Shown one piece after another: positions 4,949-53,946 of a DNA stretch of 64,000 nt (positions are counted from its first letter, which is position 1; every line of letters starts with the position of its first letter). The position numbers and the translations under genes are program-made. The notes under the pieces were generated by a model that was given only the letters and a program-made list of their open reading frames with translations, was not told the origin of the DNA and made no database searches. The stretch is from Heptranchias perlo (taxonomy: Eukaryota). The stretch lies in contig NW_027139264.1 of the NCBI RefSeq assembly GCF_035084215.1, positions 186,001-250,000 of the forward strand, written 5' to 3'.

Positions 4949-5209
4949 ATTTCCACATCCTCGCATTTTACTACATACTGAGCCGTGGCGGGGCCGAGAT
5001 GCCCGAGTACAGCTTGGTCGCGATGCTCGATGACTATGAGATAGTGTATTTCGACAGCACCCTGCAGCGGACTGTGCCCAGACAGCAGTGGATGGCCGAC
5101 TCCTTTGACAACCATCACTGGGACGCCATCGCCATCACAATGGCGGGGTTCCATGGTCTGGTCAGAGGAAACGCCGAGATATTTTACCGACAGCAACACG
5201 GTGCCTCGA
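4949..5209 (+). CDS. MHC class I heavy chain (nonclassical), alpha1 exon
   Basis: Acceptor tcctgcag| and donor |gtgagt; 261 bp, phase 1-1. Translates (D)FHILAFYYILSRGGAEMPEYSLVAMLDDYEIVYFDSTLQRTVPRQQWMADSFDNHHWDAIAITMAGFHGLVRGNAEIFYRQQHGAS, with class I alpha1 hallmarks H3, LDD..IVYFDS, PR..W and W60-D61. Confidence 0.93.
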
Positions 5210-5534
5210 GTGAGTATCCTCACAGATTCGGTGCAGCTATCGACTGACAGGAGGAAAGGATTTGTATCCATATAGAGCCTTATCCTGTCTCGGAGAAATG
5301 TCCCGAACCACTTTACACCCATTAAATGACTTGGGATGACCTGGTCATTGGCACTATCTGGGAGAAACATGGCAGACATTTTCTGCACAGCAAATGGCAA
5401 TGAGATGATTGATTTGTTCATCTGTTTTTATTGGTGTGGATTGAGGGAGAAATGGGAGCAATTGGTTCTTTTTATGTTCATTTGAACAGGAAGACGAGGT
5501 CTCGATTTAACGTCTCATCTGAAGGACGGCATCT

Positions 5535-7410
5535 CCGATAGTGCATCACTCCCTCAGTACTGCCCCTCCGACAATGCATCACTCCCTCAGTACTGCCCCT
5601 CCGACAATGCATCACTCCCTCAGTATTGCCTCTCCGACAATGCATCACTCCCTCAGCACTGACCCTCCGACAATGCATCACTCCCTCAGTTCTGCCTCTC
5701 CGACAATGCATCACTCCCTCAGTACTGCCCCTCCGACAATGCATCACTCCCTCAGTACTGCCTCTCCGACAATGCATCACTCCCTCAGTACTGCCCCTCC
5801 GACAATGCATCACTCCCTCAGTATTGCCTCTCCGACAATGCATCACTCCCTCAGTACTGCCTCTCCGACAATGCATCACTCCCTCAGTACTGCCTCTCCG
5901 ACAATGCATCACTCCCTCAGTATTGCCTCTCCGACAATGCATCACTCCCTCAGTACTGCCTCTCCGACAATGCATCACTCCCTCCGTACTGCCTCTCCGA
6001 CAATGCATCACTCCCTCAGTATTGCCTCTCCGTCAGTGCAGCACTCCCTCAGTACTGCCCCTCCGTCAGTGCAGCACTCCCTCAGTACTGCCCCTCCGTC
6101 AGTGCATCACTCCCTCAGTACTGCCCCTCCGACAGTGCATCACTCCCTCAGTACTGCCCCTCCGACAATGCATCACTCCCTCAGTATTGCCTCTCCGTCA
6201 GTGCAGCACTCCCTCAGTACTGCCCCTCCGTCAGTGCAGCACTCCCTCAGTACTGCCCCTCCGACAGTGCATCACTCCCTCAGTACTGCCTCTCGGAGAG
6301 TGCATCACTCCCTCAGTACTGCCCCTCCGACAGTGCATCACTCCCTCAGTACTGCCTCTCTGACAGTGCATCACTCCCTCAGTACTGCCCCTCCGACAAT
6401 ACATCACTCCCTCAGTACTGCCCCCCGACAGTGCAGCACTCCCTCAGTACTGCCTCTCTGACAGTGCATCACTCCCTCAGTACTGCCCCTCCGACAGTGC
6501 AGCGCTCCCTCAGTACTGCCCCTCCGACAGTGCAGCGCTCCCTCAGTACTGCCCCTCCGACAGTGCAGCACTCCCTCAGTACTGCCCCTACGTCAGTGCA
6601 GCGCTCCCTCAGTACTGCCCCTCCGACAGTGCAGCACTCCCTCAGTACTGCCCCTCCGTCAGTGCAGCTCTCCCTCAGTACTGACCCTCCGACAGTGCAG
6701 CTCTCCCTCAGTACTGACCCTCCGACAGTGCATCACTCCCTCAGGACTGCCCCAACGTCAGTGCAGCTCTCCCTCAGTACTGCCCCTCCGACAGTGCAGC
6801 ACTCCCTCAGTACTGCCCCTACGTCAGTGCAGCTCTCCCTCAGTACTGACCCTCTGACAGTGCATCACTCCCTCAGTACTGCCCCTCCAACAGTGCATCA
6901 CTCCCTCAGTACTGCCTCTCTGACAGTGCATCACTCCCTCAGTACTGCCCCTCCGACAATACATCACTCCCTCAGTACTGCCCCCCGACAGTGCAGCACT
7001 CCCTCAGTACTGCCTCTCTGACAGTGCATCACTCCCTCAGTACTGCCTCTCCGACAGTGCATCACTCCCTCAGTACTGCCCCTCCGACAGTGCAGTGCTC
7101 CCTCAGTACTGCCCCTCCGACAGTGCAGCGCTCCCTCAGTACTGCCTCTCCGACAGTGCAGCGCTCCCTCAGTACTGCCCCTCCGACAGTGCAGCACTCC
7201 CTCAGTACTGCCCCTCCGACAGTGCAGCACTCCCTCAGTACTGCCCCTCTGACAGTGCAGCACTCCCTCAGTCCTGCCTCTCCGACAGTGCAGCACTCCC
7301 TCAGTACTGCCCCTCCGACAGTGCAGCACTCCCTCAGTACTGCCCCTCCGACAGTGCAGCACTCCCTCAGTACTGCCCCCCCGACAGTGCAGCACTCCCT
7401 CAGTACTGCA
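5535..7410. repeat. 33-bp SINE-derived minisatellite (~57 copies) in MHC alpha1-alpha2 intron
   Basis: Unit CAGTGCAGCACTCCCTCAGTACTGCCCCTCCGA, embedded in a minus-strand SINE (~5250-7478). Confidence 0.95.
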
Positions 7411-7555
7411 CTGGAGTGTCAGCCCAGATTATGCGCTGAAATCTCTGGAGTGGGGCCTGAAACCACGACCTTCTTACTCTCACCTCTGGTTCAGAAGGTT
7501 GTGGGTTCAAGACCCACTCCAGAGACTGGAGCAGAAAATCTCGGCTGGCACTCCC

Positions 7556-8080
7556 AGTGCAGCACTGAGGGAGGGGCAGCACTGAGGGAGGGGCAGCACT
7601 GAGGGAGGGGCAGCACTGAGGGAGGGGCAGCACTGAGGGAGGGGCAGCACTGTGGGAGGGGCAGCACTGAGGGAGGGGCAGCACTGAGGGAGGGGCAGGA
7701 CTGTGGGAGGGGCAGCACTGAGGGTGGGGCAGCACTGAGGGAGGGGCAGCACTGAGGGAGCGCAGCACTGTGGGAGGGGCAGCACTGAGGGAGGGGCAGC
7801 ACTGAGGGAGGGGCAGCACTGAGGGAGCGCAGCACTGAGGGAGGGGCAGCACTGAGGGAGGGGCAGCACTGTGGGAGGGGGGCAGCACTGAGGGAGGAGC
7901 AGCACTGAGGGAGGGGCAGCACTGAGGGAGTGCAGCACTGAGGGAGGGGCAGCACTGAGGGAGGGGCAGCACTGTGGGAGGGGCAGCACTGAGGGAGGGG
8001 CAGCACTGTGGGAGGGGCAGCACTGTGGGAGGGGCAGCACTGAGGGAGGGGCAGCACTGAGGGAGGGGCAGCACTGAGGG
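7556..8080. repeat. 17-18-bp G-rich minisatellite
   Basis: Unit GCAGCACTGAGGGAGGG(G), following a + strand SINE head. Confidence 0.95.
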
Positions 8081-8529
8081 ATTTGATGTGAGCACCTTGA
8101 ACGTTGGAATGAAATCATCGCTGCCACTTGTTTCTCCTCTTCTAAAGCTGCGTTGCCAGGGTTACTAACAAACAGATGAAATCAGGACAGGCGGGTCCAT
8201 CAAGCCTGTCCTGTCTTGGCACGGTGAAACAACACACACACACACACCATCAGCACCCTCTCCCTCCCACAGTCACACAATCTCCTGGGAGAGGCCAAAG
8301 AAAGAGGATGAAACTGAGGCCAAGTTAGGAAAGCAAACACTCTGGGAGATTCCTCTGCGACCCCCCCCCCAGGGAATCGAGGAAGGTGCAGGAGACCACA
8401 GTGTCTGATATCACTGGTCCCCATTAACCCCACACACCTCCTATAACTCGAGATACTTTCTATTGGTCGCCAGTCCCCTTTCCAACACTTGCAGTCTACA
8501 CACACACACTGTGCATGCAGGCAACTTGT

Positions 8530-10435
8530 TCATCGAATCACAGAAAGGTGACAGCACGGAAGGAGGCCATTCGGCCCATTGAGTCTGTGCTGGCTCTGTG
8601 CAAGAGCAATCCAGCTAGTCCCTCTCCCCTGCCCTATCCCTGTAGCCCTGCAAATTGTTTCCTTTCATTACTTATCCAGTTCCCTTTTGAAGGCCACGAT
8701 TGAATCTGCCTCCACCACCCCCTCGGGCCGTGCATTCCAGATCCTAACCACTCGCTGTGTAAAAAAGTTTTTCCTCAAGTCACCTTTGGTTCTTTTGCCA
8801 ATCACCTTAAATCTATGACCTCTGGTTTTTAACCCTTCCGTCAATGGGAATAGTTTCTTCATGATTTTAAACACCTCGATCAAATCTCCTCGCAACCATC
8901 TCTGTTCCAAGGAGAACAACCCCAGCCTCTCCAGTCTATCCACATAACTAAAGTCCCTCATCCCTGGAATCATTCTGGTAAATCTATTCTGCACCCTCTC
9001 CAAGGCCTTCACATCCTTCCTAAAGTGCGGTGCCCAGAACTGGACACAATACTCCCGTTGTGGCCGAACCAGTGTTTTATAAAGGTTCATCATGACTTCC
9101 ATACTTTTGTACTCTATGCCTCTATTTAAAAAGCCCAGGATCCAGGATGCTTTTTTAACCGCTTTCTCAACCTGCCCTGCTCCCTTGAATGATTTGTGCA
9201 CATATACCCCCAGATCTCTCTGTTCCTGTACCCTTTTAGAATTGTGCCCTCCAGTACCTCTTCTATATCAATTTTTAGCCCATCCAGTATCTTAACTATA
9301 TCTTCCTTTACTGAGACTCTGGCAGCATCTTCTTCCTTGGTAAAAACAGATGCAAATTACTCATTTAGTACCTTGGCCATCTCCTCTGCCTCCATGAGTA
9401 GATCTCCTTTATGGTCCCTAATCGGCCCCACCCCTCCTCTTACTACCTGTTTACTGTTTAGATGCCTGCAGAAGACTTTTGGATTCCCTTTTATGTTGGC
9501 CGCCAGTCTGTTCTCAGACTCTCTCTTTGCCCCTCTTATTTCCTTTTTCACTTCCCCTCTGAACTTTCTATATTCTGCCTGGTTCTCACTTTTATTATCA
9601 ACCTGATATCTGTCATATGCCCCTTTTTTCTGTTTCATCTTACTCTCTATCTCTTTTGTCATCCAGGGAGCTCTGGCTTTAGTTGCCCGACCTTTCCCCC
9701 TCGTGGAGACTGTACCCGAACCATCTCCTCCTTAAAGGCCGCCCACTGTTCAATTACAGTTTTGCCTGACAATCTTTGATTCCAATTTACCCGGGACCAG
9801 ATCTGTTCTCATCCCGTTGAAATTCCAGAGATCGATGACTCTCTGTGACAATCTAACCTATTGCTAAGGTTAAAGTTCAAGACAGCAGGACATAAATGGA
9901 ACCTCAACGTAACACAGCTGCTCAGGAGCATCGAAAGAGGAAGAGGCCATTCAGCCCCTCGAGCCTGCTCCACCATTCATTTATATCATGGCTAATCTGC
10001 ACCGTAACTCCATTTTCCAGCCTTTGCTTCCAATCCATCGATACCCTTACCTCACAAAAATTTAACAATCTCAGTCTTGAAAGCTCCAATGGGCCGCCAG
10101 CATCCCACAGCCTTTTGGGGGAGAGAGTTCCTGATTCCCACTCCCCTTTGTGTGATAAAGTGCTTCCTGATTTCACTCCTAAATGGCCTGGCTCTAAATC
10201 TAAGATCTTGATTCCCCCACCTGAGGAAATAGTCCCTCTGGAATTCCCTCCCTAAACCTCTCCGCCTCTCTCTCCTCCTTTAAGATGCTCCTTCAAACCT
10301 ACCTCTTTGTCCAAGCTTTTGGTCACCTGTCCTAATATCTCCTTATGTGGCTCGGTGTCAAATTTTGTTTGTCAAGTGCCTTGTGATGTTTTACTCCGTG
10401 AAAGGCGCTATATAAATGCAAGTTGTTGTTGTTGT
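8530..10435. mobile_element. CR1 fragments (-) and L2-type 3' end (+, ~10240-10435)
   Basis: LYKTLVRPQREYCVQFWAP; L2-like tail aggcgctatataaatgcaag(ttg)n. Confidence 0.8.
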
Positions 10436-10490
10436 ATGTACCCGATCGAACCCTTTTCACATTTTCAATTGACTTGAGTTGTTTTTCCAG

Positions 10491-10766
10491 GTGTTTTCTT
10501 TGTCCAGGGAATGTGTGGCTGCGAACTGAACAGCGACAACTCCACGGAGGGGTTTATAAAGTTTGGATATGACGGGGAGGACGCGTATGTTTTTGACAAG
10601 GACAGATTGAGTTGGATTGCGGTGAATCCAGAGTTCCAGACTTTAGCAGACCGGTGGAATGCGAACACCTTCATGAACAAATACTTCAAGACCCTGTTGG
10701 AAAAGGACTGTGTGAAGTGGCTGCTGATATACCTTCGGGCTGGGCGAGAAGCACTACAGAGGAAAG
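10491..10766 (+). CDS. MHC class I heavy chain, alpha2 exon
   Basis: Acceptor gtttttccag|, donor G|gtacct; 276 bp, phase 1-1. Encodes VFFVQGMCGCEL...FGYDGED...W...RWN...DCVKWLLIYL...LQRK with the C101/C164 pair, YDGxD motif, W133, W147 and W167. Confidence 0.96.
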
Positions 10767-11430
10767 GTACCTCGAGCGAGCGGGAACTGGAGGTGCCGTA
10801 CAGGCAAAGTTTATATTCCCAGTCTGTCCTGAGCCAGCTGTTCCCGGACAGGGTAGCAGTGAGGGGTGCTGCACCTGGCCTCAGTACCCCTTGGGGTGGG
10901 TGGGGTGGGGATGGGGGAGATAAGCGGGCAGGTGACCTAAATCCGATGACCTACTCAGTCTCCCCGGCTGGAAAGCCCGTGCGTGTTGACATCGGGTGAG
11001 GACGGGGTTCAACTAAATTGTAATACCCCCATGGTTGAATAGCTTCCTGGTCCTCACTGTGAAGGCTCACTCGTGAACACGAGTGAGCCTTCACAGTGCT
11101 TGTGTGCGTTACCGGAACGTGACCCGTTACATGGAATTTACAACACAGAAACAGGCCATTCGGCCCAACAGGTCTATGCCAGTGTTATTGCTGCACCCTC
11201 CCTACTTCATCTCCCCCTATCAGCATATCCTTCTATTCCTTTCTCCCTCATGTGTTTATCCAGCTTCCCCTTAAAGGCATCTGTGCTATTCGCCTCAACT
11301 ACTCCTTGTGAGAGCGAGCTCCACATTCAAACCACTCTCTGAGTTTCTCCTGAATTCCCCATTGGATTTATTAGTGACTCTCTTATATTTATGGCCCCTC
11401 GTTCTGGCCTCTGCCACAAGTGGAAACATC

Positions 11431-13310: not shown

Positions 13311-13583
13311 TCGCCCCTGAGGTGTTTATTGGGAAGAGGAGTGACGGGGACAGAGTGCTAAGGGTCTCCTGCCTTGTGTCGGGGTTCTACCCCTGGGCCA
13401 TCGAGGTGACTTGGTTGGGGAATGGCGAGGAGATCGCTGACATTGAATCCAGTGACGTGCTGCCCAACCAGGATATGACCTATCGGGTACTGAAAACGAT
13501 CGAGCTGAGTGGAGACGACAGGAAGAGCTACTCCTGTCATATCGAGCACGCCAGCCTCCTGCGGGGGATCAACGTACCCTGGG
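13311..13583 (+). CDS. MHC class I heavy chain, alpha3 (Ig C1-set) exon
   Basis: Acceptor aatctctcag|, donor G|gtgagt; 273 bp. Encodes VAPEVFI...SCLVSGFYPWAIEVTW...LPNQDMTY...YSCHIEHASL...VPW with C1-set motifs C-x3-GFYP, W and YxCxxxH. Confidence 0.96.
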
Positions 13584-13719
13584 GTGAGTGGCAAATCGGG
13601 GGGGGGGGCTCAGGGTCTTTCCCTGTGTCTCGGGGGGGCCGCGAGGTACTTCCTGGAACTCTGGGTCCTTCCCCGATTCTCGGGAGGGCCGCAGGGCTTT
13701 TCCCCGTGTCTTGGGGGCC

Positions 13720-14950
13720 CACAGGGTCCTTCCCCATGCCTCTGGGTCATTCCCCGTGCCTCTGGGTCATTCCCTGTGCCTCTGGGTCATTCCCTGTGCC
13801 TCTGGGTCCTTCCCCGTGCCTCTGGGTCCTTCCCCATTCCTCTGCATTCTTCCCCATGCCTCTGGGTCATTCCCTGTGCCTCTGGATCATTCCCCGTTCC
13901 TCTGCATCCTTCCCTGTGCCTCTGGGTCATTCCCTGTGCCTCTGGATCATTCCCTGTGCCTCTGGATCATTCCCTGTGCCTCTGGGTCCTTCCCCGTGCC
14001 TCTGGATCATTCCCTGTGCCTCTGCATCCTTCCCTCTGCCTCTGGGTCCTTCCCTGTGCCTCTGGATCATTCCTCGTGCCTCTGCATCCTTCCCTCTGCC
14101 TCTGGGTCCTTCCCCGTGCCTCTGGATCATTCCCCATGCCTCTGCATCCTTCCCCGTGCCTCTGGGTCCTTCCCTGTGCCTCTGGATCATTCCTCGTGCC
14201 TCTGCATCCTTCCCTGTGCCTCTGGGTCATTCCCCGTGCCTCTGCGTCCTTCCCTGTGCCTCTGGGTCATTCCCCGTGCCTCTGGGTCATTCCCCTTGCC
14301 TCTGGGTCCTTCCCTGTGCCTCTGGGTCATTCCCCGTGCCTCTGGATCATTCCCCGTTCCTCTACATCCTTCCTCATGTCTCTGCATCCTTCCCTGTGCC
14401 TCTGGGTCATTCCCTGTGCCTCTGGATCATTCCCTGTGCCTCTGGGTCATTCCCCGTGCCTCTGGGTCCTTCCCCGTGCCTCTGGGTCCTTCCCTGTGCC
14501 TCTGGATCATTCCTCGTACCTCTGCATCCTTCCCTGTGCCTCTGGATCCTTCCCCGTGCCTCTGGGTCCTTCCCCGTGCCTCTGGGTCATTCCCTGTGCC
14601 TCTGCATCATTCCCCGTGTCTCAGGGTCCTTCCCCGTGCCTCTGGATCATTCCCCGTTCCTCTGCATCCTTCCCTGTGCCTCTGGGTCCTTCCCTGTGTC
14701 TCAGGGTCATTCCCTGTGCCTCTGCATCCTTCCCCGTGCCTCTGGGTCATTGCTGTGCCTCAGGGTCCTTCCTTGTGTCTCTGCGTCCTTCCCCACTTCT
14801 CTGGATCCTCCCATGTGACTCTAGGTCATTCCCTGTGACTCGAGGTCATTCCCTGTGACTCGAGGTCATTCCCTGTGCCTCAAGGTCATTCCCTGTGCCT
14901 CAAGGTCATTCCCTGTGCCGCAGGGTCCTTCCCCGTGTCTCTGCATCCTT
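13720..14950. repeat. 20-bp minisatellite just after the alpha3 exon
   Basis: Unit TCCCYGTGCCTCTGGRTCMT. Confidence 0.95.
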
Positions 14951-15579: not shown

Positions 15580-16560
15580 ACTGCCCTTTCCCCATAGCCC
15601 TGACTCAATTCCAAACGAATCCCACTGCCCCACTCTCTCCCCATAGCCCTGTATCAATCCCAAACTAATCCCACTGCCCCACTCTCTCCCCATAGCCGTG
15701 TAACAATCCCAAACTAATCCCACTGCCCCGCGCCCTCCCCATAGCCCTGTATCAATCCCAAACTAATCCCACTGCCCCACTCTCTCCCCATCGCCCGGTA
15801 TCAATCCCAAACTAATCCCACTGCCCCACTCTCTCCACACAGCCCTGTATCAATCCCAAACTAATCCCACTGCCCTACTCTCTCCCCATAGCCCTGCATC
15901 AATCCCAAACTAATCCCACTGCCCCACTCTCTCCCCATCGCCCTGTATCAATGCAAAACTAATCCCACTGCCCCACTCTCTCCCCATAGCCCTGTATCAA
16001 TCCCAAACTAATCCCACTGCCCCAATCTCACCATAGCCCTGTATCAATCCCAAACTAATCCCACTGCCCCACTCTCTCCCCATTGCTCTGTATCAATCCC
16101 AAACTAATCCCACTGCCCCACACTCTCCCCATAGCCCTGTATCAATCCAAAACTAATCCCACTGTCCCACTCTCTCCCCATAGCCCCGTATCAATCCCAA
16201 ACTAATCCACTGTCCCACTCTCTCCCCATAGCTCTGCATCAATCCCAAACTAATCCACTGTCCCGCTCTCTCCCCATAGCCCTGTATCAATCCCAAACTA
16301 ATCCCACTGCCCCACTCTCTCCCCATAGCCCTGTATCAATCCCAAACTAATCCCACTGCCCCACTCTCTCCCCATAGCCCTGTATCAATCCCAAACTAAT
16401 CCCACTGCCCTACTCTCTCCCCATAGCCCTGCATCAATCCCAAACTAATCCCACTGCCCCACTCTCTCCCCATCGCCCTGCATCAATCCCAAACTAATCC
16501 CACTGCCCCACTCTCTCCCCACAGTCCTGTATCAATCCCAAACTAACCTCACTGCCCTGT
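15580..16560. repeat. 49-bp minisatellite derived from a CR1 3' UTR
   Basis: Unit CCCTGTATCAATCCCAAACTAATCCCACTGCCCCACTCTCTCCCCATAG; resembles CR1 3' UTR at ~44850 and continues into CR1-like sequence. Confidence 0.9.
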
Positions 16561-17028: not shown

Positions 17029-17219
17029 AGAGGGCGACAGAAGGAGGCACGAATGTCGGGATTGGGACTGGAGCAGCAGCCGTCTCACTCACTCTTCTTG
17101 GCATCATCGTCGGAATTGGCTTCTGGAGCAAGAGGCAAAACAGGAGAGACCAGCAGAGCCCATCAGAGACCAGCAAAGCCCATCAGAGACCAGTAGAAAC
17201 TGGCAGAGTCCTGCCGTGA
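17029..17219 (+). CDS. MHC class I heavy chain, connecting peptide + transmembrane + cytoplasmic exon (to stop)
   Basis: Acceptor ttcaatag| in phase 1. Reads ERATEGGTNVGIGTGAAAVSLTLLGIIVGIGFWSKRQNRRDQQSPSETSKAHQRPVETGRVLP* (TGA 17217-17219): a hydrophobic helix followed by a basic stop-transfer segment. No obvious internal donor. Confidence 0.8.
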
Positions 17220-20740: not shown

Positions 20741-21279
20741 TTACAGTTTCAAATGACGCCGTTGAAAAGAGGTTCCGTGTTTCTCCTACTTTTGTTCAAC
20801 CAAGGATTAAAGAAAGGGAACAGTTTGTCTTTGAACGTGTGAGTGAAAAAGTGCAGAGATGGAACATGTCATCAGCATTGTAAAAGGACACCTGTCCTCC
20901 CTCATAGACCCTGATCTTCCTGGGCTTGGTTGTTAGTTTGAGGACAGTGGAGGGTGAGGTCAGAGCCCCTTCGATGTGCTCGTACCTCTGACAGATGGTC
21001 CACGACCCAATCGAGGGTCAGCGTGATCTGCCCCTTCCTGTTGGCCGTCTCCTGGGCCAGTCCCAAGTCCCAGTCGGTCTTGTTGGCCGCCTCCATCTCC
21101 CAGTAGTGATTCCCTGAGGTCAATCCCTGGCTGCTCAGAACGCAGGTGCACTGCTCATACCCCTGGCAGACGTTGTTTAGGTTATTGGCTCAGATCATTG
21201 GCGTCCACCATGGTCAGGTCCTCAGGTACTACAAGCCTGGACTGCCCGGTTCTGGGATCGAGAGTGATCAGAGCCAGCA
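20741..21279 (-). pseudogene. TRIM paralogue pseudogene, B30.2 exon
   Basis: LITLDPRT...VLSSQGLTSGNHYWEMEAANKTDWDLGLA...[14 protein letters not shown]...KLFPFFNP...RHLKL*; same acceptor phase as the intact exon 6; several frameshifts and deletions. Confidence 0.9.
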
Positions 21280-22072
21280 CTTTTAATAATAGACAGGGAG
21301 AACGTTATAAACATTCGACAATTATAACTGGAACATGAAAATACTGAAATCCAAGGTGATATATCGAGAAGGTGTTATCGGCTTTGCATACAGTACACAA
21401 TTCCTTCTGGGGACACGTTCCCCCCTCATATCTTGCCGATAACACCCCTCTTTACGAAACAGTATATCCTCTGACTCGCCCCCTCCACAATCCCGCAGGG
21501 GAATCGTTCACCTTTATCAACATTTCCCCTTCTCTTGATACAGGGGTATTGATTCCTTGCTCTGATCTGATTCCAATAGAGCCCTAGTACCTTCAGAATC
21601 TTACCCACATGGCCGACCTTCATATATCAGCCTGCACGGGGACTGCTGGCAAGCTATTATTCGACTGTGGAAGGCATCACAGCTCAGCCTGACCTGGGCC
21701 CCACCGGATTCCCACACGGGCGAGGGATCAGGACCAGGAACCGTAGCTCAGAGTCTGACTCACCCCCAGCCCAGGGAGAGCCGAGAATGATTGGTGCTCA
21801 GGTCAGCTAACTTGGCCCAGGCTAGAAATGCCACAGGAGATAGAGGATCCATAAAGAAAATCACATCAATTGGGGAATATTTTCCTCTGTGCGTAAAGTT
21901 ACAGAAAGATTCTTCTATTACTAAACTGGGGAGGTTTATAAGAAAATCTGTCTTTCACCTGAGTTCAAATACAACCCAGATGAAAGGTCGATAAAGGTTT
22001 CATGTGAGGAGAGTTTAGGGCCGTCTCAAGCAATTCTTGTTATTTGTGGGTCCATAGGGGATAGGAATTAAT

Positions 22073-22720
22073 TGGGGAGTGGGGCTCAGTCGGGTTAGAG
22101 TGGGGAGTGGGATTCAGTCGGGTCAGAGTGGGGAGTGGGACTCAGTCGGGTCAGAGTGGGGAGTGGGCCTCAGTCGGGTTAGAGTGGGGAGTGGGACTCA
22201 GTCGGGTCAGAGTGGGGAGTGGGGCTCAGTCGGGTGGGAGTGGGGAGTGGGGCTCAGTCGGGTCAGAGTGGGGAGTGGGACTCAGTCGGGTCAGAGTGGG
22301 GAGTGGGGCTCGGTCGGGTCTGAGTGGGGAGTGGGATTCAGTCGGGTCAGAGTGGGGAGTGGGGCTCAGTCGGGTCAGAGTGGGGAGTGGGATTCAGTCG
22401 GGTCAGAGTGGGGAGTGGGACTCAGTCGGGTCAGAGTGGGGAGTGGGACTCAGTCGGGTCAGAGTGGGGAGTGGGACTCAGTCGGGTCAGAGTGGGGAGT
22501 GGGGCTCTGTCGGGTCAGAGTGGGGAGTGGGGCTCAGTCGGGTCAGAGTGGGGAGTGGGACTTAGTCGGGTCAGAGTGGGGAGTGGGACTCAGTCGGGTC
22601 AGAGTGGGGAGTGGGATTCAGTCGGGTCAGAGTGGGGAGTGGGGCTCAGTCGGGTCAGAGTGGGGAGTGGGGCTCAGTCGGGTCAGAGTGGGGAGTGGGG
22701 CTCAGTCGGGTCAGAGTGGG
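22073..22720. repeat. 28-bp G-rich minisatellite (~23 copies)
   Basis: Unit TGGGGAGTGGGRCTCAGTCGGGTCAGAG. Confidence 0.95.
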
Positions 22721-42324: not shown

Positions 42325-42869
42325 CTACAGTTTGAAATGACGCAGTTTGAGAGGAGCAGTATTTTTACCCTCATCGTGCGATCCAGGATAGAAATAAGGA
42401 AAGAGTTTCTCAGTGAATGTGTGAGTGAAAGTGTAGAGATTGGACATATCATCAGCATTGTAAAATGACACCTGTCCTCCCTCATAGTCCAGGTAAACTC
42501 CGATGGTCCTGAGTTTCACACTCAGGGTCAGTGGGACCAATGGGTTTTCAATAGCTTCATATTCATTCCCATTTCTCAGCCACACAGTCCAGTATCCACG
42601 TTTAGGCCCCAGTGATATCATTCCCTTCCTGTTAACTGACTCTCTGGCCACACCCACGGCCCACTGAGTCTTGTCCCCGACCTCCACCTCCCAGTAATGT
42701 TTCCCTGATGTGAATCCCTGTGATCCCAGGACATAAGGACACAAATCGAATCTCTCCGGGTTATCGGGAAGCTGTAATTTTCTGTCATCGAGTCTCACAC
42801 TGGTCCAGTCCTCAGACAGGATGAGCTTACGATGAGCTGTGTTTGGGTCCAGGGTCAGTGAGGCTGGGA
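42325..42869 (-). CDS. TRIM exon 6: B30.2 (PRY-SPRY) domain to stop
   Basis: ttccccag|; [13 protein letters not shown]...[18 protein letters not shown]...[16 protein letters not shown]...LFPYFYP...RHFKL*. Spliced CDS is 1590 nt = 529 aa with no disablement. Confidence 0.96.
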
Positions 42870-43096
42870 CTGGGGAAATAAAAATGACATCATGTTAAAT
42901 ATTTTAGACAGAGGAAGGTGGACGGAAACAGGTTAATATCTGATATCTGGAAAACTGGGCTCGGCCCCCAGTCTATAATTTCTGTATCAGTAAATAGTGC
43001 AGACTGGGTACAGTGTACAGTTCGATATATTCCTGGACTCCAGTGTGTTCAGTGAACAGATATTACAGACCAGGCAGAGGAAATCAGTCAGCCAGT

Positions 43097-44095
43097 GGTC
43101 TCAGTCTGATCACTGTCCAGTGAACCCTGGGTCAGAGGGGTCTCAGTCTGATCACTGTCCAGTGAACCCTGGGTCAGAGGGGTCTCAGTCTGATCACTGT
43201 CCAGTGAACCCTGGGTCAGGGGGGTCTCAGTCTGATCACTGTCCAGTGAACCCTGGGTCAGGGGGGTCTCAGTCTGACCACTGTCCAGTGAACCCTGGGT
43301 CAGGGGGGTCTCAGTCTGATCACTGTCCAGTGAACCCTGGGTCAGGGGGGTCTCAGTCTGATCACTGTCCAGTGAACCCTGGGTCAGGGGGTCTCAGTCT
43401 GATCACTGTCCAGTGAACCCTGTGTCAGGGGGGTCTCAGTCTGATCACTGTCCAGTGAACCCTGGGTCAGGGGGGTCTCAGTCTGATCACTGTCCAGTGA
43501 ACCCTGGGTCAGGGGGGTCTCGGTCTGATCACTGTCCAGTGAACCCTGGGTCAGGGGGGTCTCAGTCTGATCACTGTCCAGTGAACCCTGGGTCAGGGGG
43601 GTCTCAGTCTGATCACTGTCCAGTGAACCCTGGGTCAGGGGGGGTCTCAGTCTGATCACTGTCCAGTGAACCCTGGGTCAGGGGGGGTCTCAGTCTGATC
43701 ACTGTCCAGTGAACCCTGGGTCAGGGGGGGTCTCAGTCTGATCACTGTCCAGTGAACCCTGGGTCAGAGGGGTCTCAGTCTGATCACTGTCCAGTGAACC
43801 CTGGGTCAGGGGGGTCTCAGTCTGATCACTGTCCAGTGAACCCTGGGTCAGAGGGGTCTCAGTCTGATCACTGTCCAGTGAACCCTGGGTCAGAGGGTCT
43901 CAGTCTGACCACTGTCCAGTGAACCCTGGGTCAGGGGGGTCTCAGTCTGATCACTGTCCAGTGAACCCTGGGTCAGAGGGGTCTCAGCCTGACCACTGTC
44001 CAGTGAACCCTGGGTCAGGGGGGTCTCAGTCTGATCACTGTCCAGTGAACCCTGGGTCAGAGGGGTCTCAGTCTGACCACTGTCCAGTGAACCCT
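43097..44095. repeat. 42-bp minisatellite in TRIM intron 5
   Basis: Unit GGTCTCAGTCTGATCACTGTCCAGTGAACCCTGGGTCAGRGG. Confidence 0.95.
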
Positions 44096-44322
44096 ACTGG
44101 AAAGTGCGAGTGTCTGGATTCAAATGAGAAAATGTTCTGATTCTGTCTCTACTTGAATCGCTCAATCTAAGGTCACACAAAAAGAACGGCCCCTTGAGTG
44201 AAGTACCAGAGACTGCTGCCCCAGTGATCGGTACACAACAACAGTCAGTACATTCAGGAGAGGGAGAAGAGAGCAGGAAACTCTACAGAAAGTTCACCCA
44301 AACCTGTGGAGTCGTTTCATAC

Positions 44323-44558
44323 CTGGAGAGATGATCTGTTTCATTTCCTTCCACACTGCGTAGAGTAAAGGGCCTCGAAACATGGCGTATTTCAGACTTG
44401 CAGATACCAGTATCTCTTCATCTTCATCTTCCTCTGACGATCTCTCTTGATCTTCACCTTCCTCTGATGATCTCTCTTGATCTTCACCTTCCTCTGACGA
44501 TCTCTCTTGATCTTCCCCTCTCTCTGCACCTTCTCCTCCCTCCCCTTTGTCCAGGTAC
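44323..44558 (-). CDS. TRIM exon 5 (linker 2 with acidic repeats)
   Basis: aaacag|G TAC CTG...TCT CCA G|gtatga; 236 bp, phase 2-1; YLDKGEGGEGAER(GEDQERSSEE)x3 DEDEEILVSASLKYAMFRGPLLYAVWKEMKQIISP. Confidence 0.9.
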
Positions 44559-44650
44559 CTGTTTGAATGGGATTGATTCACTCACTCACTGCTGGATACA
44601 ATCTGTGATCACAGTGTAAGACCGAGTCTGGGTTTGGATTGGGTACTCAC

Positions 44651-44673
44651 CTTTCTCCCAATCTTTTCAGTTC
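44651..44673 (-). CDS. TRIM exon 4 (23-bp micro-exon)
   Basis: tcctgcag|GAACTGAAAAGATTGGGAGAAAG|gtgagt; the typical 23-bp TRIM exon; phase matches both neighbours. Confidence 0.9.
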
Positions 44674-44769
44674 CTGCAGGACAGAGAATCAGAAACATTT
44701 TAATAAATATACCGTACTCTTTAGATTGTACATTTTAATAAATATACCGTATTATTTGGATCGTACGTT

Positions 44770-47390
44770 TTAATCATAGAATCGTTACAGCACAGAAGGA
44801 AGCCATTCGGCCCATCGAGCCCGTGCCGGCTCTTTGTAAGAACAATCCAGTTAGTCCCATTCCCCCCACTCTTTCCCCATAGCCCTGCAACTTTTTTCCC
44901 CTTCAAATATTTATCCAATTCCTTTTCGAAAGCCACGATTGAATCTGCTTCCACCACCCTATCAGGCAGCGCATTCCAAATCATAACTATTCGCTGTGTA
45001 AAAACATTTTTCCTCATGTCGCCTTTAGTTCTTTTGCCAATCACTAAATCTGTGTCCTCTGGTTCTTGGCCCTTCCACCAATGGGAACAGTTTCTCTTTA
45101 TTTACTTTATCAAAATCCTTCATGATTTTGAACACTTCTATCAAATCTCCTCTCAACCTTCTCTGCTCTCAGGAGAACAACCCCAGCTTCTCCAGTCTAT
45201 CCAGGTAACTGAAGTCCCTCTCCCCTGGAACCATTGTAGTAAATCTTTTCTGTTCCCTCTCTCAGGCCTCACATCCTTCCGAAAGTGCGGTTCCCAGAAT
45301 TGGACACAATACTCCAGTTGTGGCTGAAGCAGTGTTTTGTAAAGGTTCAACATGACTTCCTCACTTTTGTACTCTCTGCCTCTATTTATAAAGCCCAGGA
45401 TCCTGCATGCTTTTTTAACCGCTTTCTCAACCTGTCCTGCCACCTTCAAAGATTTGGGCACATATAACTCCAGGTCTCTCTGTTCCTGCACCCCCTTTAG
45501 AATTGTACCATTTAGTTCATATTGCCTCTCCTCGTTCTTCCTGCCAAAATGTATCACTTCACACTTCTCTGTGTTAAATTTCATCTGACATGTGTCCGCC
45601 CATTCCACCAGCCTGTCAATGTTCTCTTGAAGTCTATCACTATCCTCCTCACTGTTTATTACACTTCCAAGTTTTATGTCATCTGCAAATTTTGAAATTG
45701 TGCCCTGTACACCCAAGTCTAAGTATATATCAAAAAAAGCAATGGTCCTTGTACTGACCCCTGGGGAACACCACTGCACACCTTCGTCCAGTCCGAAAAA
45801 TAACCGTTCACCACTACTCTCTGTTTCCCGTCACTGAACAATTTCCTATCCATGCTGTCACTGCCCCTTTTATTCCATGGGCTTCAATTTTGCTGACAAG
45901 CCTATTATGTGGCACTTTATCAAACGCCTTTTGAAAGTCCATATATACACCAACCTTCTCTGTTACCTCATTAAAAAACTCAATCAAGTTAGTTAAACAC
46001 GATTTGCCTTTAACAAATCCGTGCTGGCTTTCCTTTATTAATCCACACTTGTCCAAGTAACTATTAATTTTGTCCCAGATTATCGTTTCTAAAAGCTTCC
46101 CCACCACCAAGGTTAAACTGACTGGCCTGTAGTTGTCGGGTTTATCCTTACACCCTTTTTTGAACAAGGGTGTAACATTTGCAATTCTCCAGTCCTCTGG
46201 CACCACCCCCGTATCTACGGATGTTTGGAAGATTTTGGCCAGTACCTCCGCAATTTCCACCCTTACTTCCCTCAGCAACCCAGGATGCATCCCATCCGGA
46301 CCGGGTAACTCATCGACTTTAAGTACTTTCTCATGTGTCCTCCATCAATTTATAGCCCATCCAGTATCTCAACTACTTCCTCTTTTACTGTGACTTTGGC
46401 AGCATCTTCTTCCTTGGTAAAGAAAGATGCAAATATTCATTTAGTACCTCAGCCATGCCCTCTGCCTCCATGTGTCCCTAATTGGCCCCACCCCTCCTTT
46501 TTCTACCCATTTCCCAATATATGCTACAGGAAATTTTTGGATTCCCTTTTACATTGGCCGTCAGTCTATTCTCATACTCTCTCTTTGCCCCTCTTATTTC
46601 CTTTTCACTTCTCCTCTGTACTTTCTATATTCAGCCTGGTTCTCACTTGTATTATCAACCTGACATCTGTCAGACACCCTTTTTCTGCTTCATCTTACTC
46701 TCTATCTCTTTCGTCATCCAGGGAGCTCTGACTTTAGTTGCCCTAACTTTCCCTCTCGTGGGAATGTACCTCTACTGTACCCGAACCATCTCCTCTTTAA
46801 AGGCCACCCATTGTTCGATTACAGTTTTGCCTGACAATCTTTGATTCCAATTTACCCAGACCAGATCCGTTCTCAACCCACTGAAATTGGCCCTCCTCCA
46901 ATTAAGTATTTTTACTCCAGTTTGCTCCTTGTCCTTTTCCATAACTAATCTAAACCTTATGATATTGTGATCACTGTTCCCTAAATGTTCCCCCACTGAC
47001 ACTTGCTCCACTTGACCCACCTCATTCTCCAGAACCAGATCCAGCAATGCCTCCTTCCTCGTTGGGCCGGAAACATACTGAGCAAGAAATTCCTCCCCCT
47101 CTTTGCCCTTTACACTATTACAATCCCAGTCTATATTGGGATAGTTGAAGTCCCCTATTATCACTACTCTACAGTTCTTGAACCTCTCTGTAATTTCCCT
47201 GCAAATTTGCTCCTCGATACCCATCCTACTATTTGGTGGCCTATCGAATACACGCAGTAGTGCACTGGCACCTCTATTGTTTCTTAACTCTATCTAACCA
47301 AATAGAGTCTGTCCTTGGCCCCACAGGGACATCCTCTCTCTCCAGCACTGCAATATTCCCCTTCATCAACACTGCCACCAACACCACTAT
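44770..47390 (-). mobile_element. CR1 LINE ORF2 remnant in TRIM intron 3
   Basis: IIGDFNYPNIDW, LGNSDH, NYRPVSLT, DFQKAFDKVPH, KFADD, 3' UTR. Confidence 0.92.
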
Positions 47391-47844
47391 TTTCTTTCCT
47401 TCCCGATGTATAATCAGTGGTTTTAGTGAAATGTGATGTGATCTGGGGAGTTTTCACTGACGGGCTCCAGTGATGTGACACCGTGTCCGTTACCCCCTGG
47501 AATACACTGGACAGGGTCTCCTCTGCTGCTGAAGACTTTGAAGGTTCACTGAGCCTTTCCTTTTATTTATGGTCTATATTTTCCCAGTAACTCAGAGCTT
47601 GTCTCTGGTCTGTGCAGCCCTGAGCTGGGGACAGTGGTGTTACACCTAACCTCAGTATCCCTTCGATAGGGAGACAACAGCCTATGTACCAGCTCCTGGA
47701 CACTTCCAGGCAGCTCTGGGGAAACATGCAGCTGTGGAGACATCAGACCAGAACAGGAATAGGCTCATTGTGATGCCCACACAGTCAAATAGCCTCCTGT
47801 TGCTCACTGTTTGTGCAATAGATGTGCAGCAGCCACAGAAATAT

Positions 47845-48140
47845 ACCCCAGCCTATCGCTGTTCCCAGGGCTAGTACCCATGAGACTGTACCCCAACATG
47901 TCTCTGTTCCCAGGGCTCGTACCCATGGGACTGTACCCCAACATGAATCTGTTCACAGGGCTAGTACCCATGGGACTGTACCCCAACATGTCTCTGTTCC
48001 CAGGGCGAGTACCCATGGGACTGTACCCCAACATGTCTCTGTTCCCAGGGCTAGTACCCATGGGACTGTACCCCAACATGTCTCTGTTCCCAGGGCTAGT
48101 ACCCATGGGACTGGACCCCAACATGTCTCTGTTCTCAGGA
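47845..48140. repeat. 45-bp tandem repeat (~6.5 copies)
   Basis: Unit GTACCCCAACATGTCTCTGTTCCCAGGGCTAGTACCCATGGGACT. Confidence 0.92.
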
Positions 48141-48249
48141 CAGAAGCGAAATGGAGCAAACTATAGGGCCTAAACTCTCAAAACCTGAATGAAGAATCCT
48201 CAGTAACCTGTGGGAGATATTCAGATGGTGAGTTCATCGGATATTTACA

Positions 48250-50120
48250 GGTGAGGGAAGCCATTTGGCCCATCAATTCCTCCATCTAGAACGACTAAAG
48301 GTGCCCCCCTACATTGCATCATCTAATTGGTTCCTGTCCTAACGCTGCCCATTTGCTCATTACTGTTGTGTGAGAAGAACTTCCTGATATCAGTCCTGAA
48401 ATTACATTTACACGTTTGACCCTGTGTCCCCTTGGCCGACTCCAACAATTAAAGTATGATTTTGATTTACCATTTCCATACTGTTTACTATCCCTTATAC
48501 CGCGATAGAATCACCTCTCGGACACCTCGGGGATTATTTAGACTTTAGGCGATAATATAGCACGGACGATATTGGCTCGGTCTCTCGTTAAACACCTCTC
48601 CCCATTTTTATTTCTATTGACTTCAAATCTGGAGAGATGTTTAATAGGTGACTGAGCTGATATCGGTCCTTTTACACTGTCGCCCAGTGTCAAAATTACA
48701 CCACTCCTTTCCAGAGTGAAGTGTTCAAGTCTCTCCAGTCTGTCCCAATAACTGAGACGCTTGATACCAGGCCTCACTGCTCTCCTCTGCCCTGCCTTAC
48801 TTCTCGGTGACCAGAACTAGGCACAGTATTGTATCGAATTGCATAGAATCTACAGCACAGAAACAGGCCATTCGGCCCAACTGCTCCATGCCAGTGTTTA
48901 TGCTCCACACGAGCCTCATCCCACCCCTCTTCATCTAACCCCATCAACATATCCTTCTGCTCCTTTCTCCCTCATGTGTTTATCCAGCTTCCCCTTGATT
49001 GTATCTGTGCGACTCACCTCAACCACTCCATGTGGTCGCGAGTTCCACATTCTAACCACTCTCTGGGTAGATAAGTTTCTCCTGAAATAGTGACTATATT
49101 ACACTTATGGCCCGTAGTTTTGGACACCCCTACAAGTGGATACATATTCTCTATGTCTCCCCTATTAAACAATTTCATAATTTTTAAGACCTCTATCAGG
49201 TCATCCCTCAGCCTTCTCTTTTCGCCGAATCCCCCACCATCAACATCCTGGGGGTCACCATTGACCAGAAACTTAACTGGACCAGCCACATAAATACTGT
49301 GGCTACAAGAGCAGGTCAGAGGCTGGGTATTCTGCGGCGAGTGACTCACTTCCTGACTCACCAAAGCCTTTCCACCATCTACAAGCCACAAGTCAGGAGT
49401 GTGATGGAATACTCTCCACTTGCCTGGATGAGTGCAGCTCCAACAACACTCAAGAAGCTCACCACCATCCAGGACAAAGCAGCCCGCTTGATTGGCACCC
49501 CATCCACCACCCTAAACATTCACTCCCTTCACCACCGGCGCACTGTGGCTGCAGTGTGTACCATCCACAGGATGCACTGCAGCAACTCGCCAAGGCTTCT
49601 TCGACAGCACCTCCCAAACCCGTGACCTCTACCACCTAGAAGGACAAGGGCAGCAGGCACATGGGAACAACACCACCTGCACGTTCCCCTCCAAGTCACA
49701 CACCATCCCGACATGGAAATATATCGCCGTTCCTTCATCGTTGCTGGGTCAAAATCCTGGAACTCCCTTCCTAACAGCACTGTGGGAGAACCTTCACCAC
49801 ACGGACTGCAGCGGTTCAAGAAGGCGGCTCACCACCACCTTCTCAAGGGCAATTAGGGATGGGCAATAAATGCCGGCCTCACCAGCAAAACCCACATCCC
49901 ATGAACAAATAAAAAAAATGAGCCCCAGCCTGTTCAATGTTTCCTGATAGTTATAACCTCTCAGTTCTGTTATCGTCCTTGTGATTCTTTTTTGTACCTT
50001 CTCCAGTGCCTCTATATCTTGTTTATGGAGACCACAACTGTTCACAGTAGTCTAATTGTGGTCTAACCAAGGTTTGATCCAGGTCTAACATAACCTCTCT
50101 GCTTTTGAATTCTATCCCTC
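48250..50120. mobile_element. CR1 3' fragments with a second LINE 3' end nested at ~49225-49915
   Basis: CR1 sequence is interrupted by AGQRLGILRR...VMEYSPLAW and an A-rich tail. Confidence 0.75.
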
Positions 50121-50690
50121 CATTCAAAGTGGGGTCTGATCAGAGTAACTGCACAGTGTGATCACAACTTTCTCTGACCTGTATGGACGAGTCAGTCCAT
50201 TGACTGCAAATGAAAATTGGGTGCAATGTAAAACAGGCTGTCGATTCGTTATCGCCTGTTTTGCACGACCGTCTTTGGCGAATTTATACCCTTCTGTGTC
50301 TCGACCCGCTGCCAACGACCTTCTGATCTACGACTTGTCTCGGCTGAATCTGCTTTCCTCCCTCCACCTATCTACTTTGAATGATTTCCGATTGCTGCCT
50401 CAATGTTCCCCACAAGTCTCTTTACCCCTCCTTGGTCTGGATGCAGCCCATTTCTTCTGTAACAGTCCTTTTTTGGACATTGTCATCTGGTTCCAGTTAT
50501 ACAGGAAGATACTGTTATACCTGACAGGTTCAGACAGTCTCCTCCACAGTCAGAGCTCAAACTGGACTGATACCTGTTTGTCCTCAGTTATACTGCACGT
50601 TGTGCAATGTTGTGATGTGGTTTGAGCCCTATTATAATGTGCTGTTTACACTTACACCAACAGGTTGGGGATTGGTTTATAAAGGATCAC

Positions 50691-50924
50691 CTTGAGAAAA
50701 GAGATACTGTCTTGCTGCTCGATGTCTGCACAAAGGTTCAATATGTTCTCCTCAAGTGATCTCAGTTCCTCCTCAATTCTTTTCAAGTTCTTCTCCATTG
50801 GGCGTAGATCTTCCTCCTTTTGCCTCCTCAGCTCTTCCATTAAATGTTTCTCTTTGTCTTCAAGATATTGATGAATTTTGGCAAATTGTGCAGCGATGTC
50901 TTGCTCCAGGGATCCTGTGAGCTC
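50691..50924 (-). CDS. TRIM exon 3 (coiled coil, 234 bp)
   Basis: catcttag|GAGCTC...CTCAAG|gtgatc; ELTGSLEQDIAAQFAKIHQYLEDKEKHLMEEL...DSISFLK. Confidence 0.92.
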
Positions 50925-51004
50925 CTAAGATGGTGAGAGAGATCATTTAAGCTGCAGGTTGTTAAAGGGCCGCAGTGTTTAAAGGTGACGTAAGTAGGAC
51001 TTAC

Positions 51005-51100
51005 ATTCAGTTCTGAAATCTTCTCCTCCTGCCGCCGTTTTAATTCACTTTTACTTTTCTTTTCATCCTCCATGGAATCCAAGGACAATTTCAGCTGGTC
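51005..51100 (-). CDS. TRIM exon 2 (coiled coil, 96 bp)
   Basis: ttttag|GACCAG...GAAT|gtaagt; DQLKLSLDSMEDEKKSKSELKRRQEEKISELN; typical 96-bp TRIM exon. Confidence 0.93.
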
Positions 51101-51299
51101 CTAAAAATGGAATCAGATCTCATCATAATCCATTTCAATGTCAGCCATTGTATTCCAAAACAGTGGGATCGGACGTTCAGGGAATATTACATGTGTTACT
51201 AGTGTGTACCCCTTTCTTTACAAGAGGCAGAGTGAAAAGTACCCAATCAAACCAGGCACAGCTTCAAACCAACAACTGGTTTATGTTATATTAAATATA

Positions 51300-51660
51300 T
51301 GAAAGGGTTTGATAGGGTAGACGGAGAGAAAATGTTTCCACTTGTGGGGGAGACCAGAACTAGGGGCCATAAATATAAGATAGTCAGTAATTAATCTGAT
51401 AAGGAATTCAGAACAAGCTTCTTTACCCAGAGAGTAGTTAGAATGTGGAACTCACTACCACAAGGAGTAGTTGAGGCGAATAGTACAGATACGTTTAAGG
51501 GGAAGCGAGATAATCACATGAGGGTGAAAGGGACACAAGGATGTGCTGATAAAGTTAGAAGAGGGGTGGGAAGAGGCTTGTGTGGAGCATAAATGCCGGC
51601 ATGGACCTGTTGGACTGAATGCCCTGTTTCTCTGCTCTACATTGTATGTAATTCCATGCA
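51300..51660 (+). mobile_element. CR1 3' fragment
   Basis: FFTQRVVRMWNSLP motif and 3' UTR. Confidence 0.75.
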
Positions 51661-52414
51661 AGTCTATATGGCTTTCACACTGAGAACAATCAGATCCCTC
51701 ACTCCCCAGTTATTAAATACAATAAAGATACACACTCTTCAAACCTTCTCTAGCTAAGCTTTTCAAATGAGCTGGTCCAGACTTTGAATTTGTGGACAAC
51801 GTCTCACTGCTGATGTGAGAACACAGCTCAGTCCCCCTGTCTGGGAGAGAGAGAGAGAGAGACTTATTTGTCACCTGCCGTAAGTCTATGAGATGGAGAA
51901 TTCCTCCCACTGAACTGTCAATCAATGTTATGACCCCTGCCGTGGAACACCTACCCACTGATGAGGCAACAGCAGAGCGTTTATGTGTCGGTTTCAGCTA
52001 AGCCCCCTGCTGGGACAATGGAATGGGAGGATACCTGGATCCTCAGGTATTGCACAGACTGATCTTCACACAATGGCTCGTCATGTTTGACATTGTACAC
52101 ATTGACCTTCCTATTGTTCATTCACATTTTAAGTCACCGTGGTTGAGAACAGTTCAAGGCAACTGGCTCATTGTAAACAAAATCATTGTGTGTGCAACCT
52201 TGGGAGTTCGTCCCTTAAAAACTGAATCTAACATTGCAGAAATATTATATGTTAAAAAATCAGCTCAAACAACACTGGTACAAACAAAGTTCCTACAATG
52301 ACATTTGTATTTTCAACAGATCAACCAGACCAAAAGTAACCTGAACAGTAATTCTCCAACATCCAACCCCCTGTCTTAGTTCACCGAGGGAGTTTTACCC
52401 TCTCCAGACCCAGT

Positions 52415-53335
52415 AGAGACACTGTACCCCATCGAACTCCCCACCCTCTCACACAGACACTGTACCCCATCCAACTCCCCACCCTCTCACACAGACACTG
52501 TACCCCATCCAACTCCCCACCCTCTCACTTAGACACTGTACCCCATCCAACTCCCCACCCTCTCACTTAGACACTGTACCCCATCCAACTCCCCACCCTC
52601 TCACTTAGACACTGTACCCCATCCAACTCCCCACCCTCTCACTTAGACACTGTACCCCATCCAACTCCCCACCCTCTCACTTAGACACTGTACCCCATCC
52701 AACTCCCCACCCTCTCACACAGACACTGTACCCCATCCAACTCCCCACCCTCTCACACAGACACTGTACCCCATCCAACTCCCCACCCTCTCACACAGAC
52801 ACTGTACCCCATCCAACTCCCCACCCTTTCACACAGACACTGTACCCCATCCAACTCCCCACCCTTTCACACAGACACTGTACCCCATCCAACTCCCCAC
52901 CCTCTCACACAGACACTGTACCCCATCCAACTCCCCACCCTCTCACACAGACACTGTACCCCATCCAACTCCCCACCCTCTCACACAGACACTGGACCCC
53001 ATCCAACTCCCCACCCTCTCACACAGACACTGTACCCCATCCAACTCCCCACCCTCGCACACAGACACTGTACCCCATCCAACTCCCCACCCTCTCACAC
53101 AGACACTGTACCCCATCCAACTCCCCACCCTCTCACACAGACACTGTACCCCATCCAACTCCCCACCCTCTCACACAGACACTGTACCCCATCCAACTCC
53201 CCACCCTCTCACACAGACACTGCACCCCATCCAACTCCCCACCCTTTCACACAGACACTGCACCCCATCCAACTCCCCACCCTTTCACACAAACACTGTA
53301 CCCCATCCAACTCCCCACCCTCTCACACAGACACT
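52415..53335. repeat. 38-bp minisatellite in TRIM intron 1 (~24 copies)
   Basis: Unit AGACACTGTACCCCATCCAACTCCCCACCCTCTCACAC. Confidence 0.95.
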
Positions 53336-53456
53336 CTCTCCCCCCGTGGCCCTGCCAAATCTTTCTGACACTCTCCCTATCAGTTCATGCTGGCACTTAA
53401 CCAATATTACTCTTATTGCGTTTCGTGGAGACGGGTCGCTCACTTAAACCCCTCAC

Positions 53457-53912
53457 CTTGTACTTTTGAACTGCCCTCTGGACCGGCAGGAACCTGTGGT
53501 CTGAATGTGCGGGAGAATCTACACAACTGGCACAGATCAGGATCTCATCCTCCTCACAGAACAGCATCAGTTTCTCATTATGTTCCTCACAGTGAGACCG
53601 ACCTTTCTCTGGGTTCAGGATCAGCTCTGGGTTCAGGTTCAGGTTCAGGTCTGGGTCTGGGTTGAGGTCCAGCTGCCGAGCTTTCTCGGAGAGATTGGCC
53701 AACACCCTGTTCCTGCCGTAGTTTCTCCGGGGGAAAACCACCCGACATTCCGGGCAGGACACGGTCTCCCCCTGCTTGTCCCAACACTTGTCGATACAGG
53801 ATTTACAGAAGTTGTGATCACAGTCCAGCCGCACCGGCTCCACAAACAGAGAGAGGCAGACGGAGCAGGTTAAATCCTCGCTCAGGGTTACGATCTGTTT
53901 GCTGACGGCCAT
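53457..53912 (-). CDS. TRIM-B30.2 E3 ligase (TRIM39/TRIM35/A33-like), exon 1: RING + B-box2
   Basis: ATG at 53912; C3HC4 RING CSVC...CDHNFCKSC...CPEC; B-box2 CEEH...C...CASC...HSDH; donor AAG|gtgagg; 456 bp. Confidence 0.96.
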
Positions 53913-53946
53913 CTCAGTTCCTGCTCCTTATTCTGTCGCTCACTTT

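Follow-up and report, generated by a model that had tools for sequence, protein, structure and literature searches.

A class I molecule of the major histocompatibility complex (MHC) that has lost most of the residues by which the ends of a peptide are fastened raises the question of what its groove holds. Such a gene is found in a window of 64,000 nucleotides (nt), the whole stretch of DNA analysed here, on contig NW_027139264.1 of Heptranchias perlo (GCF_035084215.1); coordinates are positions within this window unless a contig is named. The analysis shows an intact, spliced nonclassical class I gene related to UGA and UFA, and it is fairly likely that its product pairs with beta2-microglobulin (beta2m) and carries lipids or other greasy ligands, not peptides. 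Five coding exons make up the gene, and the coordinates given in an earlier note on this DNA, which had proposed a CD1-like, lipid-presenting molecule, span only alpha1 and alpha2 (4949..10766). The leader exon precedes the window by about 5.8 kb (G000:C1097:180183), and the other four are as follows.

4949..5209, forward strand: alpha1 exon, with F7, H59 and Q84, without an N86 glycosylation sequon, and with a helix motif in common with UGA
10491..10766, forward strand: alpha2 exon, with G97, C99, A123, L143, R146 and L159 and an NST sequon
13311..13583, forward strand: alpha3 exon, a C1-set immunoglobulin domain
17029..17219, forward strand: exon for the connecting peptide, the transmembrane segment and a 29-residue tail without a YxxPhi motif, ending in the stop codon TGA at 17217-17219

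The alpha1, alpha2 and alpha3 exons have AG/GT borders, phase 1 and open frames, and the start of the last exon at 17029 is preceded by AG, its splice and the end of the tail being taken from the NCBI gene model and not from RNA. All four are open, as the earlier note had read them, and are identical letter for letter to protein P0021. Pfam recognised MHC_I in alpha1 (E 3.9e-6, under the curated cut-off by itself) and in alpha2, and the C1-set in alpha3 (E 1.3e-16). Leader, alpha1, alpha2, alpha3 and transmembrane segment, phase-1 introns and the cysteine pair C101-C164 give the layout of an MHC class I heavy chain.

The earlier note had suggested looking for a spliced transcript, and one was seen: in three of four RNA-like sequencing runs, all made on one sample, contigs carry alpha2 spliced directly to alpha3, with a GT..AG intron of 2544 nt removed. 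These runs (X5-X7) were taken as RNA from the splice joint, none being recorded as RNA, and in the fourth, X13, the class I exons had no contig coverage. One contig of 1438 nt extends 350 nt ahead of alpha2 and 539 nt beyond alpha3, lengths that would be compatible with a full message. An Ile-to-Val variant of alpha3 in one run indicates that transcripts do not all come from a single copy or allele. In the 782 nt upstream of the leader, simple pattern matching found CCAAT boxes and no match to an interferon-stimulated response element (ISRE), kB or X2.

Residues were numbered from a mammalian class I row (P0044; H3 to C101, 98; C101 to C164, 63), whose cysteine spacing we take to equal that of HLA. 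The nine anchor positions then read F7, H59, Q84, A123, L143, R146, W147, L159 and Y171, the very residues listed in the earlier note; conserved anchors for the peptide termini mark classical class I (UAA), and here two of nine, W147 and Y171, are kept. The changes, including those at Y59, Y159 and T143, are fixed throughout the lineage defined below, which comprises 15 rows. The loss of the N86 glycan site and the gain of a sequon in alpha2 also held, position 86 being H and an NST or NTT sequon standing in the alpha2 loop of 15/15 members. The beta2m contacts named previously, Q96, D119, G120, D122 and the alpha3 proline, are retained in this copy, as are a further contact, W60, and N77; D119 varies among relatives (D/N/K/G).

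The groove was judged by hydropathy over 36 positions. Twenty-five are apolar and two charged, with a mean hydropathy of 1.20, so that the claim of an apolar groove stood. Among 121 class I representatives (those of 147 cluster representatives with one full alpha1-alpha2) the mean was 0.05 (standard deviation 0.45) and four reached 1.20; the 66 representatives with at least seven anchors did not exceed 0.38. The 15 rows of the lineage ranged from 1.06 to 1.51, UGA from 0.49 to 1.15, UFA-like rows from 0.50 to 0.79 and UDA-like rows from -0.71 to -0.85. Twenty of the 36 positions do not vary within the lineage, including H59, C99, R146 and the small floor residues G97 and A123 to which the earlier note had drawn attention, and groove positions are slightly more conserved than the other alpha1-alpha2 positions (0.88 vs 0.82, p=0.043, 15 rows). 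The groove is identical to that of the UGA of the same genome at 20/36 positions, and to those of other lineages at 7-10 of 35-36.

The lineage comprises sharks and batoids, with ectodomain identities of 64-75% between orthologues. The best sequence match in the PDB was 9CH4 (E 1.8e-70; alpha1 alone, E 1.2e-22), which by its title is UGA, just as 8GM8 is UFA. Trees were built from 44 rows (the alpha3 tree lacking one row without alpha3), and approximately unbiased (AU) tests were run on 29 of the 44. The 15 rows formed a clade with an ultrafast bootstrap (UFB) of 100, as did 17 UGA rows, and both clades contain sharks and rays, which makes the split between them older than that between sharks and rays. 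The clade uniting the lineage with UGA and UFA received UFB 97-99, and FastTree support for membership in it was 0.967 after 121 further class I rows had been added. Grouping with classical-like, UDA-like or UEA-like rows was rejected (AU p <= 0.0014), in line with the nonclassical status claimed earlier from the lost anchors. Membership of UDA, a lineage that presumably retains its anchors largely, was rejected against UDA-like rows (AU p=1.1e-4), and membership of UEA on alpha1-alpha2 (AU p=0.00135); we gave the labels UDA, UEA and UAA/UBA ourselves, judging by anchor pattern, copy number and position, and a classical UAA gene was not positively identified among the rows. The catshark gene model LOC119975565 (P0041), with a protein of 802 residues, is a fusion of two genes, one UDA-like and one UFA-like.

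Orthology with UGA was rejected, since the genome has a UGA of its own (P0029, E 3.8e-141 to 9CH4) and the two clades each have UFB 100, and so was orthology with UFA, a separate UFA-like gene with 34% identity being present on contig C1101. The trees thus support a place inside the known UFA/UGA clade but in a lineage apart from both, so that of the two possibilities left by the earlier note, a known chondrichthyan lineage or a new one, the first holds for the larger clade and fails for its named members. Full-length members of the lineage fell into one of 1.84 billion clusters at 50% identity, the next being UGA at 45%. The 150 best representatives included no recognisable member from a chimaera or a bony fish, by which absence is not shown, and the ESM Atlas returned generic class I clusters only. 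No named lineage matching the gene was found in the literature searched, which was largely without subscription journals, so that a name may exist elsewhere; on this lineage and on the original work on UFA and UGA the search yielded only PMC10751288 and PMC12562908, and a search by species for the MHC of Heptranchias perlo turned up only mitochondrial work. In the supplement of PMC10751288, genes carry only the label "MHC-Ib", and the sawfish orthologue is probably already tabulated there as such an unnamed gene. UGA as originally defined by its authors may lump both clades. The gene is a real third member of the known clade, probably in a lineage unnamed so far.

A model was predicted with AlphaFold2 from 66 rows, a 12-row model with a predicted local distance difference test (pLDDT) of 38.7 having been discarded. 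With a mean pLDDT of 82.5 it shows a normal class I fold, and against 48,161 chains its best structural match was UGA (Z 28.8, root-mean-square deviation (rmsd) 1.7, 267 residues aligned), followed by chicken CD1-1 (Z 26.6) and ZAG (26.2), with UFA at 22.7. In Foldseek, UGA had the highest TM-score among the matches listed (TM 0.94, rmsd 1.7). The modelled fold confirms kinship with UGA.

The relation to UGA can be followed in detail. Both have alpha1 and alpha2 helix motifs, G97, F156 and L159 in common, and the UGA gene adjoins this one on contig C1080, as it apparently does in sawfish and catshark. The clades are, however, reciprocally monophyletic, with 41-46% identity between them (41% to 9CH4) and 62-78% within; this lineage has H59, C99, R146 and D122 where UGA has Y59, F99, K146 and Y/F122, the N86 sequon is present in UGA but not here, and one copy of UGA was found in this genome, against 12 of this gene. 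With UFA the gene shares the larger clade and the loss of anchors, and contig C1101 holds one copy of it together with UFA, UEA-like and UDA-like genes, but in the groove only 7 of 35-36 positions are common. To CD1 the likeness lies in an apolar, non-polymorphic groove and, for CD1a, in a tail without YxxPhi, while identity to chicken CD1-1, human CD1a and CD1d is only 21-26%. Since other class I folds score similarly to chicken CD1-1 and the trees have no identified CD1 row, "CD1-like" denotes functional likeness only.

The 12 copies of the gene were missing from the earlier note. Alpha1, alpha2 and alpha3 each gave 12 matches at 98-100% on eight contigs, and in 12/12 copies these exons are open with intact splice sites. 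UFA/UGA-type genes are described in passages of PMC12562908 as single or low copy, a status that does not fit this assembly, and clusters from other species had 1-4 members. On contig C1097 three copies follow one another in the same orientation, the units being 160 and 172 kb long, each with a TRIM gene and a zinc-finger open reading frame (ORF), and on C1105 three copies are spaced by 151-153 kb; the units were mapped by a k-mer map, self-BLAST being swamped by minisatellites. The zinc-finger ORF of the repeat unit is of the C2H2 type and was recognised by eye on G000:C1097 near 290 kb and 323 kb, the second unit having two of them. Some 120 kb separate one copy of the class I gene from UGA, and a second copy shares its contig with UFA, UEA-like and UDA-like genes; the array thus belongs to the MHC-Ib cluster that is described in PMC10751288. 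One copy has UGA on its downstream side and another has UFA there, and the array therefore seems inverted in part or present in two arrangements.

Whether the 12 copies are 12 loci is a separate question. It may be, although we would not expect it, that they are partly uncollapsed haplotypes and that a single haplotype really carries about six copies at most: all copies are on small unplaced contigs, and read depth gives no copy number, the DNA contigs X1-X4 over 10450-11080 collapsing the variants and offering no single-copy baseline. Against this stand the three copies head to tail on C1097 and the three on C1105, as well as the finding that all 12 copies differ in a 631-nt test stretch (12 distinct haplotypes, with variants common in blocks), while flank divergence averaged 1.1-1.5% in four of five segments and 3.4% in the fifth. 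A diploid has at most two alleles per locus, and 12 distinct copies thus require at least six loci.

Across the 12 copies, the groove exons contain two replacement sites in 422 as against six silent sites in 109 (Fisher p=0.0013) and are under purifying selection; alpha3 has no such deficit (four replacement, one silent). The high groove polymorphism of a classical gene, for which the earlier note had proposed a check, was not seen in this one assembly, neither of the two replacement sites falling among the 36 groove positions.

The case for a lipid ligand is drawn from the reports on the nearest relatives and from the precedent of chicken YF1. In passages of PMC12562908 the binding of CD1d-like lipids by UFA and UGA is suggested by a crystal structure and mass spectrometry, cited as personal communication, and PMC10751288 mentions unpublished data on UFA as evidence of the lipid type. 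Chicken YF1, according to sections of PMC2998441, has a lipid-binding apolar groove on a classical-like fold; YF1*7.1 thus resembles this gene in its fold and hydrophobic groove, but is near classical class I in sequence, while the present lineage is ancient, conserved and depleted of anchors. From sequence and from this analogy we infer both lipid binding and association with beta2m.

Several observations weigh against this interpretation or against parts of it. The lipid evidence for UFA and UGA is second-hand. A UAA/UBA-like copy (L159, G000:C1161:298001-308000) has a groove hydropathy of 1.06 with all nine anchors classical-like (Y Y R L T K W Y Y), which means that the hydropathy index alone is not diagnostic. 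Marsupial peptide-binding class I scored Z 25.7 and HFE 25.6 in the structural search (peptide-binding class I and HFE together, 25.3-25.7), close enough that the fold picks no ligand class, and the 50 Foldseek matches listed were mostly MR1, with no CD1 among them. As to placement, sisterhood with UGA received UFB 91-94 and only 72 in the reduced tree, the AU test leaves a grouping with UFA standing (p=0.256), and the tree of alpha3 alone places the lineage with UEA- and UBA-like rows (support 68). A leader exon was found for three of the five copies in the contigs examined; those without a detected leader are the third copy on C1097 and the copy on C1101, though their alpha1-alpha3 and transmembrane exons are intact. 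Finally, YxxPhi occurs in 0/15 tails of the lineage (first 40 tail residues) and in 13/19 of UGA, where it is CD1-like and near the membrane, a contrast that is provisional because the tails are gene-model predictions and not cDNA.

Other ligands, or none, were also considered. Binding of small aromatic or metabolite ligands in the manner of MR1, in which C99 or H59, both invariant, might make a reactive or polar contact, would suit the many aromatic residues of the groove, and alpha2 has its best PDB sequence match in MR1, which also holds top Foldseek ranks (TM 0.87-0.90); such binding is nevertheless unlikely, in that UGA fits the model better, MR1 identity is only about 33% and the nearest relatives are reported as lipid binders. 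It is quite unlikely that the groove is packed shut and that the molecule acts without ligand, as HFE and FcRn do, in the role of a receptor or stress signal. The bulky residues F7, F70, F81, F116, F156, W147 and W167 could close it, the scores of HFE (as above) and FcRn (Z 24.2) are consistent with such a fold and strong conservation suits a fixed partner, but the mean groove residue volume of 162 is not above that of UGA (161-170) or the mammalian row (160), and on the floor the small residues G97, C99 and A123 do not vary.

Presentation of a narrow set of hydrophobic or modified peptides, as known from HLA-E and H2-M3, appears very unlikely. The retention of W147, Y171 and N77 would agree with it, as would the possibility of an equally apolar groove in a classical-like copy, yet seven of the nine anchors have been replaced, and the replacements are fixed in the lineage as a whole.

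For a lipid-carrying molecule, a route can be proposed. The heavy chain would fold with beta2m, the small floor residues G97, C99 and A123 would leave a cavity for alkyl chains, and a lipid of the endoplasmic reticulum (ER) or the membrane would be taken up, with R146, H59 and D163 positioned for its polar head group. In mammals, as passages of PMC5002277 describe, YXXZ routes CD1b, CD1c and CD1d to later endosomes, and CD1a tails are without YXXZ. With no YxxPhi in the tail, loading might accordingly take place either in the ER or on the route through cell surface and early endosome, as for CD1a, and late endosomes would be bypassed, while UGA would sample later endosomes. Recognition of the head group might fall to invariant or innate-like T cells or to a receptor of the natural killer (NK) type, and the recent tandem amplification would raise the dose and not the diversity of ligands.

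A more far-reaching version, which is possible but which we doubt more than we believe, holds that this is a third ancient lipid-presenting lineage of sharks and rays that splits the labour with UGA much as CD1a does with CD1b/d, having a more hydrophobic groove, an invariant free C99 on the floor that may contact or capture the ligand, no endosomal sorting motif and, in this species, a recent expansion to at least six loci beside a faster-changing TRIM gene, with the groove frozen. If lipid is bound, the MHC of cartilaginous fish would hold three or more old class I lineages of the lipid type, and the case would become stronger that the display of lipids dates back about as far as that of peptides and that different trafficking routes had already divided it. 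A direct test is possible beside the two solved shark structures. The surprise is limited by the fact that CD1-like class I of sharks is already in print for UFA and UGA; the amplification, for its part, is that of a normally low-copy nonclassical gene multiplied without diversification of its groove.

One neighbour belongs to the same amplified unit as the class I gene.

42325..53927, reverse strand: TRIM gene, with RING/B-box at 53397-53927, coiled coil at 50652-50924 and PRY/SPRY at 42325-42894

Copies of it were found on C1097, C1105, C1101, C1203, C1406 and C1424, with 11 PRY/SPRY exons at 92-100% protein identity. Among four copies, the proportions of replacement (pN) and silent (pS) differences were 0.035-0.041 and 0.016-0.036 in five of six pairs, small counts that hint at diversifying selection beside the frozen class I groove. 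A PRY/SPRY relic with stops and frameshifts lies just downstream of the class I gene (20850-21360, reverse strand). Long minisatellite arrays occur in and around the gene (5520-8080, 13700-14940, 15590-16560, 22060-22720 and 23480-33400), and the sequence of the cytoplasmic tail, too, passes into a repeat of short units.

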